From the NCBI GenBank assembly GCA_051382295.1, contig JBBCAW010000003.1, positions 32,001 to 96,000 of the forward strand: a stretch of 64,000 nucleotides of DNA. The letters are read 5' to 3'. Source of the stretch: Bdellovibrionota bacterium FG-1 (GTDB lineage Bacteria > Bdellovibrionota > UBA1018). The position numbers and the translations under genes are program-made. Numbering within the stretch: the first letter of the stretch is position 1; the number at the start of each line of letters is the position of its first letter. Of this stretch, positions 30,629-53,789 are shown piece by piece. The notes below the pieces were generated by a model. It had not been told where the DNA came from and searched no databases. It was given only the letters and a program-made list of their open reading frames with translations.

Positions 30629-31306
30629 CTATTTCTCGTACTTATATCCCACGCCATAAATCGAAATGACGTGTCTGGTGAGGGGCGGAATCTTTCGGCG
30701 TAAAGCACGAATGTGCACATCGATCGTGCGGTCGTTGGTTTGTCCGGAGTCTTCGTGCCAGACGTCCTTGAGGATTTCTTCGCGTGAAACCACGGATCCC
30801 GCCTTGGCGGCCAAACACCGAAGAATATCGAATTCAGTCAGCGTGAGTTGGGCTTTCTTTCCGGCAAAAAGGACTTCGCGGCTGGCTGGGTCGATTTTAA
30901 GGTCACCGATTTGAATGGGCTGTGAGACGGGCTCAGCATTTTTTCGGAGGCGGGCATGAATGCGCGCCTTGAGTTCTTTGAAGTCAAAGGGCTTAGGGAT
31001 ATAGTCGTCGGCCCCTTGCGTTAATCCTTGAGTGATGTCAGGGACGCTGTTTTTAGCCGAAAGGAAAATGATCGGAATCCGTTTGGTTTTATCGTCCTTC
31101 TTTAAAAGGCTACAAGCATCATAGCCGCTTAAGATCGGAAGCATGATATCCAATAAAATCAGATCCGGGGCTTTGTTTCGTGCGTATTCAATCCCGATGA
31201 CGGCGTTTTCAGCGGTGATGATCTCGAATTCTTTGTTGAGCATCGCTTCAAGAAACCGTCGGGTATCAGCATTATCTTCGATGACGAGGATGCGAGGTTT
31301 TTCCAT
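30629..31306 (-). CDS. OmpR/PhoB-family response regulator
   Basis: ILVIED, LLDIMLP, GADDYIPKPF, LTLTEF, RTIDVHI, YGVGY. Confidence 0.96.
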   Translation of the reverse strand: MEKPRILVIEDNADTRRFLEAMLNKEFEIITAENAVIGIEYARNKAPDLILLDIMLPILSGYDACSLLKKDDKTKRIPIIFLSAKNSVPDITQGLTQGADDYIPKPFDFKELKARIHARLRKNAEPVSQPIQIGDLKIDPASREVLFAGKKAQLTLTEFDILRCLAAKAGSVVSREEILKDVWHEDSGQTNDRTIDVHIRALRRKIPPLTRHVISIYGVGYKYEK

Positions 31307-31351
31307 AACTTTGTAAAAAAAGTATAACACAGCTAAATTCGGTCCTCAACA

Positions 31352-31522
31352 GGGGCTCCCGGTAAAAGGTATCGGGGTCGTCCTTCCCCCTTTGCAGCAC
31401 TTCCTATGCTGCAAGTGCCCTTTTGGGCACTCGGGCTTCTCGAACAATCCTGTTCTCGAAGGGACTCCGCGCGAAGAGCGCATCCTGCGCGCGCGGATCC
31501 CCTCACTTTTACCGGGAGCCCC
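31352..31522. repeat. Structured non-coding repeat element, copy A
   Basis: Perfect 17-bp terminal IR GGGGCTCCCGGTAAAAG enclosing several hairpins; core shared with 52859-52955. Confidence 0.9.
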
Positions 31523-31662
31523 CATGTGGGTTCGGGACCAAGAAGTCTTGAATTGATGCGTCAAGTTTCTAGCGCCTTGTTCGGTTGCTTATCTTAATTT
31601 GGGTGGGGGTGGGGCGCTGGAACAGCGTCGATTGGGTGGGGTATCTAAAATAAATAGCCACT

Positions 31663-45330: not shown

Positions 45331-45921
45331 ATGCTTTACATCTCTGAGCCGCAAAAGAAGTTGGGCATTGTTCTGTCTGTCATCGTCGCGGTGATAGCGA
45401 TGGCTGGCCTTTCTACCTACTATCCAAGCGCATCGAACCAGGGCTATTCACCCGAACAGCCGATGCCTTTCAGTCATAAAATTCACGCTGGAGTGAATAA
45501 AATTCCATGCTTGTATTGTCATTCTGGGGCTGAGAAATCCAAACACGCCTTAATCCCGTCGATGAATGTCTGTATGAATTGCCATACGGTTGTTAAGACT
45601 GACAGTCCATGGGTTCGGGAGATCCAAAAGCATTATAAGGACGGAACGCCCATTGAATGGGTACGTGTTCATGAGTTACCAGATTATGTTTATTTTCCGC
45701 ACAAACGGCACGTTGCACGAGGCGTCGCTTGCGAGGTTTGTCACGGACCTGTTCAAGACATGGATCAGGTCTATCAAGCCTCTGCGTTAACCATGGGATG
45801 GTGTATGGAATGTCACCGCGGTCAAACGACGCCCAAGCAAGTTTTGCAGAATATTTATCCTTTAATGATGGAACCGCAAGGACCGGTGGCGCCAGTCAAT
45901 TGCAACACCTGTCACAATTAA
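45331..45921 (+). CDS. actA: Alternative complex III subunit A, pentahaem cytochrome c
   Basis: Five CxxCH motifs, QPMPFSHKIH, MGWCMECH. Confidence 0.93.
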   Translation: MLYISEPQKKLGIVLSVIVAVIAMAGLSTYYPSASNQGYSPEQPMPFSHKIHAGVNKIPCLYCHSGAEKSKHALIPSMNVCMNCHTVVKTDSPWVREIQKHYKDGTPIEWVRVHELPDYVYFPHKRHVARGVACEVCHGPVQDMDQVYQASALTMGWCMECHRGQTTPKQVLQNIYPLMMEPQGPVAPVNCNTCHN

Positions 45922-45946
45922 TTCACAGCCAAAAGTCAAACGTACG

Positions 45947-48900
45947 GTGAGAGAACTCATGGATCTATCTTTGCCTGATTCAAATCAAAAGAACCAAAAT
46001 CTCGAAACGCAGGATTTTATTCCCCCGCGGCACTGGATCGGTCCCGAACAGCTCGATCCTAGTTATTGGGCGGATGCTAAAACGCAGGAAAAACGAGGAC
46101 AGGAATTTTTTGAAAAGCCCGTTGAGCTGATTGAAACACTGGATCGTCTCGATCAGGGCGGTATTGCAAGGCGGGATTTTTTAACCGTCATGGGTGCCAG
46201 TATGGCTTTGGCATCGACGGCTTGCGCTCGTCGTCCTGTACATAAGATCATTCCCTATGTCGTTAAGCCCGAGGAAATTACCCCGGGTGTGGCCAATCAC
46301 TATGCGACCACTTGTCAAGAATGTTCAGTGGGCTGCGGCATAGTTGCCAAGAATCGCGAGGGTCGACCCATTAAGCTCGAAGGCAATACCGAGCACCCTG
46401 TGAATGAGGGCGCTCTTTGTGCCCGCGGTCAGGCCTCGCTTTTGAATCTTTACGATCCCGATCGCCTTCGTAATCCTCTTCGGCGCTCGAGGCTGGCTCC
46501 TCTTTCGAATCAAGAAATCTCTTGGGCGGATGCGGATAAAAACGTGGTGAGTAAGCTCAAGGCTGTCGTCGCAAGTGGCGGACGAGTGCGGATCCTTTCG
46601 GGGCCGATTCAGAGCGAGTCCACGCATCGGTTGATTCGTGATTTTCTGTCGGGTTTTCGCTCGGGCGAGTTAGTCGAGTGGGAGCCGCTAGCCCAGGACG
46701 ATATCGTGGAGGCTCAAGAAATTTCTTACGGGACGACCGTTCTTCCTCATTATCGTTTCGATCAAGCTCAATTGGTTGTTTCTTTTGGGGCTGATTTTTT
46801 GGGAACTTGGGGCTCTCCGGTTGAACACGCTCGTGCGTGGCGGAAGACGCGCAAGTTGGACGTCAAAGCGGGCGTTCATCAAAAATTTAGCAAGTTAGTG
46901 GTTTTTGAGCCGACCTTCACGATCACGGGCGGAGCCGCTGACCAGCGGATTGCGATTCGGCCGGGTGATGAGCTGAAGCTCGCCCTCGCGCTTGCTCATG
47001 AACTCGTGATTGTACAGAAGCGTTCGGCATGGGCCGGAGACGCTGCGGTGATGTCATTACTTTCTGGCTATCAGCCCGCTGTTGTGGCCCATGAAGTAGG
47101 AGTGGATGTTCATGTTCTTCAGGCATTGGCTGAGGACCTCTGGAAAAATCGCGCAAAAAGCCTAGTGGTGGGGGGCGGGATTGCTTCTCGAACCGCAGGC
47201 GTATTAGGTCTCCACGTAGCGGTTAACTTGTTGAACTCAGTTCTTGAAAACGAAGGCGTCACGGTGGATGGGACGGCACGAAGCTCGACCTATCGTGCGA
47301 ATTTTGCGGCGTTTAATAAGCTGATTCAGGAAATGAAAAGTGGAGCGGTCGATGTTTTGATCGTTTACCGCAGCAATCCTGCGTTTACTTTGCCTCGCGG
47401 CGCGATGGGATTGGGTGAAGCCTTCGCCCGAGTGCCGTTGGTGATTTCGATTTCGGATCGTGAAGACGAGACGGCGATGTTATCGGATTGGGTCCTTCCA
47501 GATCATCATTATCTAGAAAACTGGGGTGATTCTCATCCGCGTAATGGGGTTTATAGTCTACAGCAGCCGGTGATTGCGCCCCTTTATTCAACCCGATCTT
47601 TTCAGGACTCGTTGATGGTCTGGGCTAAAGGAGCGGGACTAAAAGTCAGCGCACTATTCATGACTTCGACGGATTGGCATGGCTACCTCATGGGCAATTG
47701 GCGTGAAACCCTTTATCGTCAAAGTGGCAGCAAGGCGACGTTTGAGCGGTTTTGGGAAGGTTCGCTTCGTGTCGGCGTGTTGAATCTGTCTCACGGTAGC
47801 CATTCTAGTCCACGTAGCTTTAGAGGGAACTCGCTTGGGCAGCTTCCTCGCTACCAGGCACAAAATGCTCCGGAAGGGCAATTCTTTTTGTCCCTCTATC
47901 CTAAAGTTTCGATGAGTGACGGCCGGAGCGCAAATAATGCGTGGCTGCAAGAAATGCCAGATCCGGTGTCGGCCATTACCTGGGATAATTATCTGAACGT
48001 TTCTCCAGAGCTGGGCAAAAAAGTCGGTTTGAAAGAAGATGACGTCGTTGAGGTGAGTTCGGCGGATGTGAAAGTTCAGCTCCCGGTCCATATTCAGCCG
48101 GGGATGCATCCTTTCGTGGTGAGTGTCGCTATTGGTTATGGCCGTCGGGCGGCGGGCAAAGTGGGGAATGAAGCCGGCGTGGACGTGATTCCGTTTGCGC
48201 GTGTTGAAGGGAGTCGGTTGGCCTTTTCGGGGCATCATGTGAGTCTGCGTAAGACCGCGCGGATGTATCGATTAGCCTCGACGCAATGGCATACCGCCAC
48301 CGAAAATCGGCCGATCATCAACGATATTACGCTTTCTGAGTTTATCAAAAACCCGGGCGAATCCAATGAAACGGATCCCGAGTTGCGAATGAAGACAGTT
48401 CCAAGCATTTGGCCTTCCCATGAGTACAAGGGGCATCGCTGGGGTATGGCGATCGACCTGACCGCTTGCAACGGTTGTGGTGCTTGCGTGATTGGTTGCC
48501 AGGCTGAAAACAATATTCCGGTGGTGGGACGCGAGCAGGTGCGGAATAGCCGGCAAATGCACTGGATTCGCATCGATCGTTATTACTCGGGCCCGGCAGA
48601 TAAGCCCGAGATTGTTTTTCAACCGATGCTTTGTCAGCAATGTGAAAACGCTCCCTGTGAAACGGTTTGCCCGGTTTTGGCGACGGTCCATGACGACGAA
48701 GGCCTAAATGTTCAGGTGTATAATCGTTGCGTGGGAACTCGTTATTGCCAAAATAATTGTCCTTATAAGGTTCGTCGTTTTAACTTCTTTGATCATTGGA
48801 AGTCTTACGAGGGCGCGATGAACATGGTTTGGAATCCCGACGTGACGGTGCGTTCCCGGGGAATCATGGAAAAATGTACTTTCTGTGTTCAGCGTATTCG

Positions 48901-49144
48901 CGACGGCAAGGATAAAGCTAAGGATGCCGGCGAGAAGGTTTCGGACGGGATGGTTTTAACGGCTTGCCAGCAGACTTGTCCGGCTCAAGCCATCGTGTTT
49001 GGTGATTTGAATGATCCCACTAGCCGCGTATCTCAGTTACGGAAGGATCCGCGAGCTTACCGTGTTCTTGAGACCTTGAATACGAAGCCGATGGTTTCGT
49101 ACATGACTAAGGTTCGCAATAAAGAAGGTGAACAGCATGGCTAG
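45947..49144 (+). CDS. actB: Alternative complex III subunit B (TAT-exported molybdopterin-oxidoreductase-like domain plus Fe-S domain)
   Basis: RRDFL TAT motif, [20 protein letters not shown], Fe-S Cys clusters, RCVGTRYC. Confidence 0.95.
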
Positions 49145-50531
49145 TACTGCAGCAGTCATGGGAAATACCCCCGAGATCCTGGTTACCGGTGGAAAAACAG
49201 CCGTCGACGTGAACGATGACGTCGCTCATCCGGTTGAACATTTTCCGACCGATCGTTGGTGGGCCTGTATGGGGGTGGCGCTCTTTGCCCTGAGCATTTG
49301 GGCTTTTTCGGTTGGGTCGTTTGTGCTCAATGGTCAAGGGCTTTTGGGACTCCAGCAGCCCAATGGGTGGGGCACGGATATCACGAACTTCGTGTTCTGG
49401 GTGGGGATCGGTCATGCTGGTACGTTAATTTCAGCGATTCTGTTCTTATTTCGCCAAAAATGGCGTACGGCCATTAACCGGTCTGCTGAAGCCATGACGA
49501 TTTTTGCGGTGATCACGGCCTTGTCTTTTCCTTTGCTTCATACGGGCCGCCCTTGGTACGCGGCTTTTTGGCTTTTACCTTTGCCCAATCAACGGCATCT
49601 TTGGGTGAATTTTCGATCCCCTCTGGTGTGGGACGTTTTTGCCGTTTCGACCTATTTTACGGTATCGTCCGTTTTTTGGTTTGTAGGTTTGATCCCAGAC
49701 GTAGCGGCGATTCGTGATCGGGCAAAGAGCCCAATCCGAAAACTGATTTACACGATTCTTTCTTTGGGTTGGCGTGGGTCGAATAGGGGCTGGAGCCATT
49801 ACGAAATGGCTTACATGATCCTCGCGGGTCTTTCGACGCCCCTCGTCCTTTCCGTGCATACCATTGTGTCCTTTGACTTTGCGGTCGCTCAGGTGCCGGG
49901 GTGGCATACGACCATTTTTCCGCCTTACTTTGTAGCGGGCGCAATTTTTTCGGGTTTTGCAATGGTGTTGACGCTCTTGGTGATTATGCGTGAAGTGTTT
50001 AACTTTAAGCATTACATCACGATGAATCACCTTGAAAAGATGTGTAAAATCATCATGGCGACCGGCATGATGGTCGGTTATGCTTATGCCTGCGAGTTTT
50101 TCATCGCTTGGTATAGCGGGGGAGCCTACGAGCGGTTTGTGTTTGTGAATCGGGCTTTTGGTCCTTACTGGTGGGCTTATTGGATCATGGTTTCTTGCAA
50201 TGTGATTTTCCCCCAGATTTTTTGGGTTCGAAAATTCCGCCGAAGCATTCCGGTGATGTTCGTGATTTCGCTGCTGGTGAATATCGGGATGTGGTTTGAA
50301 CGTTATGTGATTACGGTCACGTCGCTTCATCGAGACTTTTTGCCATCGAGTTGGCGTTATTACGCCCCGACTTGGTATGACTGGGGTTGGACGTTCGGAA
50401 GTTTTGGCTTGTTTTTCAGCTTTTTTCTGCTGTTTGTTCGCTTCCTTCCGGCGATTGCCATGGCGGAAGTGAAAAACGTTTTGCCTGAAGGCAATTCTGT
50501 TGGAAAGGAGCCTGCTCATGGCCACACCTAA
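49137..50531 (+). CDS. actC: Alternative complex III subunit C (NrfD/PsrC family)
   Basis: [42 protein letters not shown]. Confidence 0.96.
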
Positions 50532-51081
50532 GTCGACTCAACCCGAGCTCTCTGGCGTGATTGGTTTTTTTGATGATCCGCACGCTTTGATCGAGGCCAC
50601 TCAAAAAGTCCGAGAAGCGCGGTATGAAAAGTTTGACGCTTTTACTCCTTATCCGGTGCATGGTTTGGATTATGCCCAAGGGTTGAAGCGTTCGCCCTTG
50701 CCATTTGTGACGCTTGGAGCGGGACTCACGGGTTTTGGTTTAGCTTTTGTCTTGCAATACTGGACTTCGGCGGTGGATTGGCCCTTGATCGTGGGGGGCA
50801 AGCCGTTTCATTCGTGGCCTGCTTTTGTGCCGATTTATTTTGAGTTGACGGTGTTGTTTGCGGCACTTTCGACCGTCGCGGCGATGTTTATTTTTAACGG
50901 TTTGCCTAATTTGAAACGCCGCATTTTTGATGCGAGCTTGACCTGCGACCGCTTTGCACTCGTGATTGAGGCCGCATCTGGTGCGGAATTTAAAGCGTTT
51001 TCGGAGTCTGAGGCAACTGAATTTTTGAAGAAGGTGGGCGCCCAGGAAGTTCGTAGCGTTTACACCGAAGGATGGTTTTGA
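50518..51081 (+). CDS. actD: Alternative complex III subunit D (DUF3341)
   Basis: [22 protein letters not shown]. Confidence 0.94.
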
Positions 51082-51639
51082 ATGGCGAACCTAAAATACA
51101 TGGCTTTCGTGGCTGTATGGTTGGGTTTGGCTCTAGGGCTGGCGGGCTGTAAGCATAGCCAACCGAACGTCATCTACATGCCGGATATGGTTTATTCGCC
51201 GGCGCTCAAGGCTCAGCAAGAAGGGGCGATGAGCATGCCCGTCAAAGGGACGGTTTCTCGTGAGTTTCAGGCTTATGCTTATACGGACGTCGAGACTGCG
51301 GGACGAGAGTTGATTAATCCTTTGCCTCCGACTCCCTCAGTTTTGAGGCGTGGGCAGGCGATGTTCAACATTTATTGTATTGTTTGTCATGGTCCCCAAG
51401 GTGAGGGCGATGGGACGATCGTCCCAAAGTTTCCGCGCCCTCCTTCCTTGCAATCGGATAAAATTCGCGGTTATCCAGATGGAAGCATTTATCACGTGAT
51501 GTCCATGGGCCAAAATCTGATGCCCAGCTATGCGTCCCAAGTTTCTTCGGGCGATCGATGGGCTATTATTTGGTATGTTCGTGCGTTACAGCGCGCTAAG
51601 CGCCCTACGGCGGATGACCTTAAAGCGGCTGGTCTATAA
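51082..51639 (+). CDS. actE: Alternative complex III subunit E, monohaem cytochrome c lipoprotein
   Basis: LAGC lipobox, YMPDM, CIVCH, MPSYA, DRWAI. Confidence 0.93.
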   Translation: MANLKYMAFVAVWLGLALGLAGCKHSQPNVIYMPDMVYSPALKAQQEGAMSMPVKGTVSREFQAYAYTDVETAGRELINPLPPTPSVLRRGQAMFNIYCIVCHGPQGEGDGTIVPKFPRPPSLQSDKIRGYPDGSIYHVMSMGQNLMPSYASQVSSGDRWAIIWYVRALQRAKRPTADDLKAAGL

Positions 51640-51666
51640 TGAAGAAGGGCTGAGGAAAGTATTCTT

Positions 51667-52857
51667 ATGGAACACACAAAAATTCGGGACCCGGGCGCTT
51701 TTCAGGTTTCAGCGGGCGCAAAAGTAGGTTTTCTCTTTTTGGCTGCCCTGGGAATCGGTACTTTCATATTTGGACTTTCAACCGATCCTAGTCGTGTTTG
51801 GGCGGCTTTTTTGCATAATCACTTTTATTTCATGTGTCTGGGCCTGGGCGGTTTGTTCTTTGCGGCCCTTCAGTGGATGACGGGGGCGATGTGGAGCGCG
51901 CCGGTTCGGCGGGTGAGCGAGGCCTTTACTGCTTATCTTCCGTTTGCCCTGGTCACGATGGGGATCCTTTATTTTGGGATCCATCATCTCTATCTGTGGA
52001 GTCATGCCGAGCATGTTAAAGGCGACCTTGTGCTCGAAGGAAAGGCGGGGTGGTTAAGTCCGGTCTTCTTTATTCTTCGGGATGTAGGGGCGGTCGCGCT
52101 TTGGTGGTTCTTTGCTCGTAAGATGGTGGGACATTCGATTGCTCAGGACACCGATGGGGCGATTAAACACACCTTGGCCAATCGCAAATGGGCCCCTGTT
52201 TTTACGGCCCTTTTTGCGATTACGTTCACGATGGTTTCGTACGATTTGCTCATGTCGTTGGATCCTCATTGGTTCAGTACGATGTACGGGGTTTATTGCT
52301 TTGCTGGCCTGTTTTATTCGAATTTGGCTCTGACTTGTATTGTTTCGATTTATTTGGTCAAGCAGGGAAAACTCAAGGGCATCGTCAATGACAATCACTT
52401 GCATGACTTAGGTAAGTTCATGTTCGCGATCTCGACCTTTTGGGCCTATATCGGATTTTCGCAGTTCATGCTGATTTGGTACGCCAATTTGCCCGAGGAA
52501 ACCGAATACTTCATGCGTCGCATGGTCGATGGATGGTTTTATGTGTCGGTATTTTTGCTGGTGGGCAAATTTGTGATGCCCTTTTTTCTATTGCTGTCTC
52601 GCGATTCCAAGCGCAGTTCAAAAACGCTGGTTTTTGTGGGTTGCTGGATGCTTTTTGCGCAATGGGTGGATGTGATGTGGTTGGTACAACCTGAGTTTTT
52701 TAAAGAGGGTCCCCGTTTTGGCCTGCTGGAGTTGGGGATGTTCCTGGGCTTTGCAGGAGTGTTTTTGTTCTTAGTGACTCGCTTCTTGGGGCGTCACTCG
52801 GTCGTTGCGATCGGGGATCCAAGATTGGAAGAGTCGGTTTTTCATCATCACCAGTAA
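51667..52857 (+). CDS. actF: Alternative complex III subunit F
   Basis: Polytopic membrane protein, MSLDPHWFST, HDLGK, SQFMLIWYANLPEE. Confidence 0.94.
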   Translation: MEHTKIRDPGAFQVSAGAKVGFLFLAALGIGTFIFGLSTDPSRVWAAFLHNHFYFMCLGLGGLFFAALQWMTGAMWSAPVRRVSEAFTAYLPFALVTMGILYFGIHHLYLWSHAEHVKGDLVLEGKAGWLSPVFFILRDVGAVALWWFFARKMVGHSIAQDTDGAIKHTLANRKWAPVFTALFAITFTMVSYDLLMSLDPHWFSTMYGVYCFAGLFYSNLALTCIVSIYLVKQGKLKGIVNDNHLHDLGKFMFAISTFWAYIGFSQFMLIWYANLPEETEYFMRRMVDGWFYVSVFLLVGKFVMPFFLLLSRDSKRSSKTLVFVGCWMLFAQWVDVMWLVQPEFFKEGPRFGLLELGMFLGFAGVFLFLVTRFLGRHSVVAIGDPRLEESVFHHHQ

Positions 52858-52858
52858 T

Positions 52859-52955
52859 CGAAATTAAAAAACTGTGCCGGGGTCGTCCATCCCTGGACTC
52901 CGCGCGAAAACGCGCTTCCTGCGCGCGCGGATCCCCTCACAGTTTTTTAATTTCG
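52859..52955. repeat. Structured non-coding repeat element, copy B
   Basis: Perfect 18-bp terminal IR CGAAATTAAAAAACTGTG; core shared with 31352-31522. Confidence 0.9.
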
Positions 52956-53117
52956 CTCTCGTGGGGACAGGGGGGGCGGGGCGGTAGATTTGCCGCCGCA
53001 GCGGCGGTGGGTTTTGAAAATGGTCTACTAGACTGTGATTTCCGACTTAAATAATCAAATAGCTCGTACCTGCATGAGTGATTTAGATTGATCTGGATCA
53101 GTCTATTTCGCTTGATG

Positions 53118-53354
53118 TTACGCCGCTTTTTTTAACCCTTCCAATCCTTCAACTATCAGTTTACGCATAATGGTCTGGTATGGAATACCCATTTTGAGGG
53201 CGATGGCCTTTAGTTCAGTAATGACGTCCTCTGGAAGATTAACGCTGGTCGGGTACTTCTTCGCAGTCTTGTGTTTGCTATAAGCCTTCTTGATAGTCTT
53301 GGCGTTGAAACTGACTTTAGAATAGCCTTTTTCATTCTTTACATAGTTCGGCAT
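53118..53354 (-). CDS. CopG/BrnA-like antitoxin
   Basis: TSVNLPEDVI..LK..A...GIPYQT. Confidence 0.85.
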   Translation of the reverse strand: MPNYVKNEKGYSKVSFNAKTIKKAYSKHKTAKKYPTSVNLPEDVITELKAIALKMGIPYQTIMRKLIVEGLEGLKKAA

Positions 53355-53676
53355 AAAATCTCCGTTCCTTTTTGTTCATCTTGCGGATGTGGATGATCCG
53401 AATCCCCGCTCCGCGCATCGTAAAACACACGAACACCGGTTTGAGTCCATCAGTGAGGCCAAGGACGCCGTATCGAGGTTCCGTAACTCTTGGTGTAAGT
53501 TGTTCGCCCAGGACCCGTATCGCTTCGATTTGTTCAAATACTGACTCGGCCTCCTCACGGGTAATTCCGTGCTTTTTGAGGTTCTTGGTACGATTCCCCA
53601 AGTCCCAATCGAAAGCAAAATCCGACTGATTGTCAAACCAATCGACCAGCCACTGAATGAAACGAAACGTCGCCAT
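53332..53676 (-). CDS. BrnT (DUF497) toxin
   Basis: FDWD.GN..KNLKKHGI...EAE.VF, EPR, FTMR...IRII..R.M...ER..Y. Confidence 0.9.
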   Translation of the reverse strand: MATFRFIQWLVDWFDNQSDFAFDWDLGNRTKNLKKHGITREEAESVFEQIEAIRVLGEQLTPRVTEPRYGVLGLTDGLKPVFVCFTMRGAGIRIIHIRKMNKKERRFYAELCKE

Positions 53677-53789
53677 AACTGGATACACTATATTACACTA
53701 TGATTCACTATGTCAACAGTGCGAAACGGCGGGCCAGGAGGCCGGTCATTCATCGATCTCGGCAGTGCTAGGTGAACTCGCAGCCGGAA

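Follow-up and report, generated by a model that had tools for sequence, protein, structure and literature searches.

A dispersed two-hairpin repeat of Bdellovibrionota, very probably kin to TwoAYGGAY, with one stem arm that in relatives is an inverted copy of host DNA

The DNA analysed here, called the window, is a stretch of 64,000 nucleotides from the genome of Bdellovibrionota bacterium FG-1 (G000 in the coordinates given below), and it contains two copies, A and B, of a non-coding hairpin element. Copy A lies beside the promoter of a response-regulator gene, while copy B lies where an alternative complex III operon (45331-52857) ends, with a BrnT-family toxin-antitoxin ORF (53332-53688) after both. 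At the gathering cut-off, Rfam gave 0 matches across the window. Perfect inverted repeats of at least 17 bp with a spacer of at most 200 nt were found in the window at copies A and B only, and 0 were found in each of 30 Markov shuffles. The features are the following, R1 being a covariance model built from 33 short-form copies:

31352..31522, minus strand: copy A, long form, read on the GGA strand (R1 match of 94.5 bits at G000:C3:63347-63532; fold z-score -9.3 on the minus strand and -9.1 on the plus strand)
31506..31522, minus strand: 5' arm of the basal stem of copy A, type 1 (20 of 36 copies)
31352..31368, minus strand: 3' arm of the basal stem of copy A, ending 2 nt from the host -35 box
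31369..31377, minus strand: 3' side of a tandem-GA internal loop (tandem GA from the alignment) and a 4-bp junction helix, with its partner at 31499-31505 (covariation helix 2)
31466..31497, minus strand: hairpin 1, with a 7-bp stem, a U-rich bulge, a 4-bp stem and the loop AGGAU at 31482-31486 (covariation helices 3-4)
31380..31465, minus strand: hairpin 2, with a 4-bp stem (31380-31383/31462-31465) and GGA retained at 31385-31387 (covariation helix 5)
31388..31461, minus strand: three-hairpin module of 74 nt that adjoins the loop GGA on its 5' side (found 7 times in the genome, of which 5 are in this family and 2 in a sibling family)
31523..31545, minus strand: conserved foot CCCAC (31526-31530) with short C-rich repeats, 5' of copy A (foot in 34 of 35 copies checked)
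31321..31349, minus strand: host sigma-70-type promoter consensus outside the element, -35 at 31344-31349 and -10 at 31321-31326 (consensus score 15)
31304..31306, minus strand: ATG of the response-regulator gene (assigned by gene family) behind the promoter neighbouring copy A
52859..52955, minus strand: copy B, short form, with loops AGGAA and AGGGAU (R1, 115.7 bits)
52956..52975, minus strand: foot CCCAC (52961-52965) and C-rich tail of copy B

The arms of copy A form the perfect 17-bp outer inverted repeat reported in the earlier note on this DNA, and those of copy B (52859-52875 and 52939-52955) are likewise perfect. The core blocks common to both (31373/52878 and 31462-31506/52895-52940) were also found as reported, with 3 differences (2 substitutions and 1 insertion), as were the minus-strand loops of copy A, UAGGAAG, (A)GGAU and AGGAU. 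The outer stems of A and B do differ in sequence, but they are not unique to each copy in the genome: the A arm type is common to 20 of the 36 copies examined, and arms are therefore inherited in this genome. Nor has the small hairpin of B been replaced in A, since its 4-bp stem and GGA are kept and the 74-nt module is inserted in its loop. The promoter consensus by copy A has a score reached or approached (at least 14) in 0.8% of intergenic control windows and, as the copy ends 2 nt from the -35 box, it lies upstream of the promoter and outside its leader. In copy B, a single nucleotide separates the end of the 3' arm from the stop codon (52855-52857) of a converging gene.

The reading of the element as modular, structured and dispersed was supported. 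An HMM of the core found 38 places, and the R1 scan gave 44 matches with conserved pairing, copy A among them. These comprise short copies, 3 long ones like A, 4 whose head is a variant, and others that are deleted or partial; the two at contig ends (C30/C76) probably represent the same locus. On the GGA strand the foot CCCAC precedes a basal stem some 17 bp long, after which come the tandem-GA internal loop, a 4-bp helix and the head, made up of hairpin 1 (U-rich bulge, AGGAN loop) and hairpin 2 (ANGGAN loop). The element is, in short, a conserved head, namely a three-way junction with two C-(N)N[GC]GAN-G hairpins, on a basal stem. In the alignment 92.9% of the cells pair and 22 of the 37 pairs have changed on both sides, values as high being obtained in 0 of 500 shuffles, and slid controls pairing at 39-53%. 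Moreover, the mismatches in the 16 bp below the internal loop of 36 copies are G-U in 20 cases and A-C in 4 when read on the GGA strand, an excess which fixes this as the strand of the element; the bias may reflect either RNA-level selection or strand-biased deamination. As evidence of selection, the outer-stem covariation counts for less than the earlier note assumed, because templated copying from arm to arm also yields it. This is a warning for stems of this kind in general, whose covariation may come from copying and not from selection on RNA structure.

The modules are also exchanged. In the family of copy A the 74-nt insert lies in the hairpin 2 loop, and in the sibling family it lies in the hairpin 1 loop, in both cases immediately 5' of the GGA and with 1 or 2 bases replaced. 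Such a constant position in two families points to the hairpin loop as an exact point of insertion or recombination, which the insert marks to the nucleotide. Compensatory changes and a GGA-to-CGA loop swap distinguish the two versions of the module, and the insert brings two more GGA loops. The sibling family has about 10 copies with the same two-loop head architecture on a stem of 26-29 bp, 2 of which carry the insert module of copy A:

G000:C5:6098-6213, C38:58920-59048, C39:27315-27431, C41:1314-1431 and C85:10920-11045: sibling-family copies, first part
G000:C5:95985-96105, C23:69945-70135, C8:33108-33325 and the C89 ends: sibling-family copies, second part

Several other repeats accompany these families. 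Divergent doublets joined by a conserved spacer module of about 110 nt were seen at G000:C22:63055-63168, C3:107230-107332 and C5:113693-113813, and fragments of the same spacer module lie 5' of several singlets. Minisatellites with units of 9-16 nt and up to about 10 copies are found 5' of the elements at G000:C30:33788, C12:150057, C9:34957 and C56:22578; C-rich 5-6-mers and minisatellites were seen 5' of many copies. Orphan feet, considered as target sites, gave 73 scores in total, 6 of them non-coding, and the two convincing ones were both head-deleted copies. The genome harbours further dispersed families as well: dyad arrays with a 51-bp period (G000:C3:125034-125272 and 26 more regions), and hairpin repeats of about 40 nt (G000:C53:35133-35174 and 22 more), about 145 nt (G000:C137:28529-28673 and 4 more) and about 150 nt (G000:C112:12236-12404 and 6 more).

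Among the 74 other genomes of the taxonomic family, R1 matched 15, and R2, a covariance model rebuilt from 54 hits, matched 31, with 1-26 copies each; in a phylum sample R2 matched 13 of 150 genomes, including five from outside the order. For its source genomes R2 is partly circular, and these counts are lower bounds (47-48 candidates scored per genome, 23 in the phylum sample). An exact core-motif scan gave 1 locus in GTDB, in a record of Bdellovibrionota, 0 in metagenomes, 0 in plasmids and, in viral contigs, 2 chance matches in one scan and 0 in another. A second metagenome scan gave 24 loci, of which 9 score on R2; 6 of these 9 are 99.9-100% identical to known copies, and none of the nine was counted as independent. 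BLAST of copy B against 40 relatives returned two weak matches, both unrelated on inspection. Given the relatedness among copies and among genomes, p-values obtained from these sets overstate significance.

The earlier note matched the element to no named family. Its architecture is that of TwoAYGGAY (RF01731), though A and B fall short of the Rfam cut-off and, even at E 10, have no match to RF01731. The same model gives 24-27 bits on the sibling family (gathering cut-off 43), and in relatives it matches the same loci as R1, on the same strand, at 42.0, 34.3 and 28.7 bits. Kinship with TwoAYGGAY is very probable and, since A and B lack a match and the best relative reaches 42.0 bits against a cut-off of 43, the element would be a divergent Bdellovibrionota branch lying outside formal membership. 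The architecture is thereby extended to Bdellovibrionota, below the Rfam cut-off.

The copies have a fixed polarity towards host features and occupy lineage-specific sites. From our own gene calls in G000 (4146 ORFs), what lies on the 3' side of 43 copies is a converging gene in 19 cases, a diverging gene in 23 and a contig end in 1. The ends of all 19 converging genes fall at most 5 nt from the model end or lie in the element itself; RNase P RNA is one of them, copy G000:C12:176403-176525 beginning directly at its 3' end. A sigma-70 consensus starts within 15 nt for 13 of the 23 diverging genes and for 0 of the 19 converging ones, the intergenic control being 11%. On the 5' side the copies usually lie at least 100 nt from any gene, with short repeats present, and orientation in G000 is unrelated to the GC-skew strand (23/43). 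In the relatives, where 2 of 126 copies were dropped for failed arm alignment and ORFs of at least 100 aa were called mechanically, the remaining 124 copies have a converging 3' neighbour in 87 of 117 cases, at a median of -4 nt from the arm end, and in 25 of 30 genomes the gap on the 3' side is smaller than that on the 5' side. Of 59 genes neighbouring the 3' side in the relatives, just 1 can clearly be equated with a 3' neighbour in G000. As side observations, the RNase P RNA gene mentioned has a long insertion relative to the Rfam model, and at G000:C56:22578, C3:124832, C30:16697, C39:54466 and C12:150057 a converging ORF extends over 18-44 nt of the element and terminates within it, as though its original stop had been lost.

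What these relatives add is the origin of the arms. Their arms have a median of 48 bp, with at least 40 bp in 78 of 126 copies, at least 80 bp in 23 of 126 and up to about 170 bp; they are mostly unique to each copy and pair best near the head. Seventeen loci bear a tRNA, and in 15 of them, from 8 genomes and with 7 amino-acid types, it lies 3' of the element and points towards it; the arm alignment there extends into the 3' end of the tRNA by 3-43 nt, the exact runs being 18, 17, 14 and 13 nt. In relatives the 5' arm thus repeats, in inverted form, the host DNA that lies 3' of the element, and the tRNA ends are proof that one of the arms was copied from the host. As the 5' arm contains inverted host sequence, templated synthesis is required, and templated copying of the arm is almost certain. 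Compared with about 1% of gene ends being tRNAs (49 against 4146 ORFs in G000), the 15 of 124 loci represent an excess, six coming from one genome and none from G000. Duplication of an integrase att site as the source of the tRNA fragments was ruled out, the fragments being inverted and not direct. At three tRNA-Arg loci (L079, L081 and L148) with near-identical 3' halves, the element is present in three genera with a different arm in each, representing either an old copy or a hot spot.

The direction of copying is less constrained. Twelve converging 5' ORFs also overlap an arm, many of them between convergent genes, and because of these the reverse copying, with 5' ORFs as the source, may also have occurred. 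Leading-strand template switching could have set the direction of copying by the tRNAs of the relatives, since the skew test applies to G000 only. In G000 itself flank copying is barely visible, with one clear extension of 11 bp (C78) and 3 of 36 copies overall against a 5% null, which is no excess.

Evidence of movement comes from a named 1.9-kb record (L025), which is 94-97% identical to contig C21 of G000 on both sides of a variable stretch and carries the element where C21 has only 8 nt and the foot. The comparison shows an occupied and a hairpin-less site, that is, a gain or a loss with its direction unset; the rest of the L025 genome is only about 70% alike to the window genes and the contig may be misplaced, the site comparison standing nonetheless. 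The earlier note's suggestion of a non-autonomous mobile element was borne out in part: the element is probably non-autonomous, but a mobilising enzyme was not found. Among the Y1, IS110 and RT families, no enzyme was linked to it. None of the 9 Y1 genes of G000 has an element within 1.5 kb, and 1 of 30 Y1 loci in the relatives does, at about 80 nt; IS110 was found in 0 of 5 genomes. The exceptional locus (L137:1168-1962, on G083:C19) has a degenerate element upstream of a divergent, RAYT-like Y1 gene, whose family reaches up to 19 copies per genome in the taxonomic family with no evident flanking repeat elsewhere; with the same query, the element-bearing genomes G068, G069, G070, G075, G066, G058, G005 and G054 were without that Y1 family.

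Taken together, the best explanation, which we hold to be reasonably probable, is a non-autonomous, REP-like dispersed repeat of a TwoAYGGAY branch whose stem is made or extended by fold-back synthesis. In this mechanism, hairpin-primed DNA synthesis would keep the stem perfect and lengthen it: at the hairpin foot, a 3' end would form on the anti-GGA strand, snap back and be extended along the host flank, growth possibly being halted by selection at gene ends. In G000 the short-armed form may have come to abut stop codons and -35 boxes via targeted insertion or one-sided deletion. The loops would most likely be recognition sites for a trans-acting factor, probably a single-strand nuclease, with CsrA binding as a possible side effect. 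Whether the 3' end is made by an element-directed nick or by generic replication slips is evenly balanced in our judgement, and an HUH/Y1 single-strand nuclease is our best guess for the enzyme, albeit a tentative one. A bolder version, which we consider unlikely, is a non-coding replicator, in which a dedicated nuclease would read the A[GC]GAN loops and nick the foot, the 3' end would copy the flank, insertion would amount to an inverted target duplication, and the loop site would take up modules shared between sibling families. If true, it would account for the unconserved basal stem, the doublets and the copy-number swings of TwoAYGGAY generally.

An explanation of comparably low probability is the dispersed CsrA sponge put forward in the earlier note, in which RNA would be transcribed from the GGA strand, its hairpins would titrate CsrA and the long stem would protect it. 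The loops are in its favour, with GGA in loop 1 of 34 of 36 copies in G000 (AGGAN in 32 of 36) and in loop 2 of 31 of 32 parsed (mostly AGGGAU, AAGGAU or AAGGAA), and with at least one GGA loop in 94 of 97 parsed copies of the relatives (26 more being unparsed); the two GGA loops of the insert, the G-U bias on the GGA strand and the presence of csrA agree with it too. A Bdellovibrio CsrA has been described as active on a GGA leader, removal of GGA abolishing regulation for the CsrAs tested, some of which tolerate GAA (PMC13443453), and the identical proposal has been made for TwoAYGGAY (PMC4333381). Nevertheless, 32 of the 194 loops in the 97 parsed copies are ACGAN, and 3 copies have no GGA loop. 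So specific a G-to-C alternative suggests another reader of the loop, and its recurrence does not fit a pure CsrA sponge; natural ACGAN loops can, in turn, serve to separate CsrA binding from recognition by another factor. In addition, csrA is present in 38 of 38 complete family genomes, so that its co-occurrence with the element is uninformative, and in G000 it lies between flgL-like and fliW-like ORFs (names from translations). No U-run, as of an intrinsic terminator, was seen by eye after the stem on either strand, and polarity and flank copying stay unexplained by titration.

Somewhat less probable still is a host-tolerated, REP-like 3'-end hairpin acting on the anti-GGA strand, which would stabilise or process transcripts behind stops and tRNAs, with arms arising from generic template switching and selection. 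The converging 3' neighbours of the relatives and their position at the arm end are as expected from it. Furthermore, tRNA genes usually follow the direction of replication, which could yield one-way copying. REPs have also been described near or overlapping coding regions (PMC3733652). Against this, 23 of 42 copies in G000 face a promoter and not a gene end, the conserved loops and G-U wobbles are on the opposite strand, orientation is independent of skew, and no route of spread is offered.

Spread through RNA, in which a read-through transcript would fold back and prime a host reverse transcriptase, the cDNA hairpin then integrating, is improbable. Its geometry equals the observed flank copy, there is a strong excess at RNA 3' ends (the 15 tRNAs and RNase P RNA), and RT domains occur in 4 of 5 element-rich genomes; however, none was found in the fifth (G061, 25 copies, 83% complete) or among the 78 3'-side neighbours scanned with Pfam (of 116 3'-side ORFs), and copies abutting -35 boxes are not explained. 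Finally, an ordinary MITE moved by a DDE transposase is highly improbable: two copies in one relative (L075 and L086, on C27 and C72 of G060) share an identical 202-nt sequence with 8-bp direct repeats, and their terminal repeat is found again, with 1 mismatch, ahead of an IS1595-type zinc-ribbon ORF, but in G000 this model is refuted, with a target duplication of at least 7 nt in 1 of 36 copies (null 4%) and arm ends that differ across copies, and it holds only for the G060 pair, as a secondary capture. In that pair IS1595-type ends enclose the head, and the MITE was perhaps made when an IS end was copied into the opposite arm.

TwoAYGGAY, a widespread structured repeat, was described in PMC2864571 and extended in a September 2026 preprint (10.64898/2026.09.22.753630); it already carries Csr-sponge and mobile-element proposals (10.64898/2026.09.22.753630; PMC4333381), the preprint leaving the link between mobility and regulation unresolved, and the present branch supplies testable handles on function and spread. 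The main text of the preprint makes no mention of Bdellovibrio, template switching or RAYT, although its supplement on elongated basal stems may bear on the matter; titles and abstracts gave no prior description of this branch or of flank copying in TwoAYGGAY, and the TwoAYGGAY literature found describes, in the parts covered, neither polarity nor flank copying nor recurrent ACGAN loops. TwoAYGGAY and the present element share a pair of successive GGA-loop hairpins that stand on one basal stem of low conservation, as well as tandem GA, tens of copies in intergenic DNA and variants with extra GGA hairpins. In Pseudomonadota, TwoAYGGAY has an extension made up of three further hairpins and a pseudoknot. 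A TwoAYGGAY seed row has an ACGAG loop (PMC2864571), comparable to the ACGAN loops found here. Divergent doublets, known for TwoAYGGAY in Pseudomonas, occur here too, with 3 in G000 and, in the relatives, 9 divergent, 4 tandem and 0 convergent pairs (a hand count). Unlike TwoAYGGAY, loop 1 is here mostly a pentaloop, hairpin 1 has a bulge and the tandem GA is in the basal stem; AYGGAY is not the rule for both loops in G000, and AUGGAU was found in 15 and 21 of the 97 relatives' loops.

With regard to regulatory RNAs, the CsrB/RsmX/Y/Z sRNAs (Rfam clan CL00106) have hairpin loops CAGGANG and CANGGANG, similar to the loops here. Unlike them, the element has 2-4 sites per copy, is dispersed, shows ACGAN variants and lacks a terminator U-run, and the Rfam rsmX model gives it 13.4 bits against a cut-off of 56.

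The comparison with REPs and MITEs proposed at the outset placed the G000 copies with neither REP/REPIN nor DDE-type MITEs. REP/REPIN sequences (PMC3733652) are likewise intergenic palindromic repeats, found as singlets and doublets and by stop codons, with a GTGG/GTAG-type tetranucleotide at one foot. Unlike them, the element is much larger and branched, and its GTGG is 3' of the hairpin on its strand; REPs have GTAG/GTGG directly 5' of a short palindrome, whereas no conserved palindrome was seen by eye after the GTGG in the tails. As for the arms, template switching is a documented route to perfect inverted repeats (PMC5941160), and its quasi-palindrome form is, as here, a templated process that perfects the arms. 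That process corrects short arms (below 20 bp, in E. coli; PMC5941160), whereas those found here reach 170 bp, are always attached to the same head and, unlike quasi-palindromes, take in host gene ends on one side.
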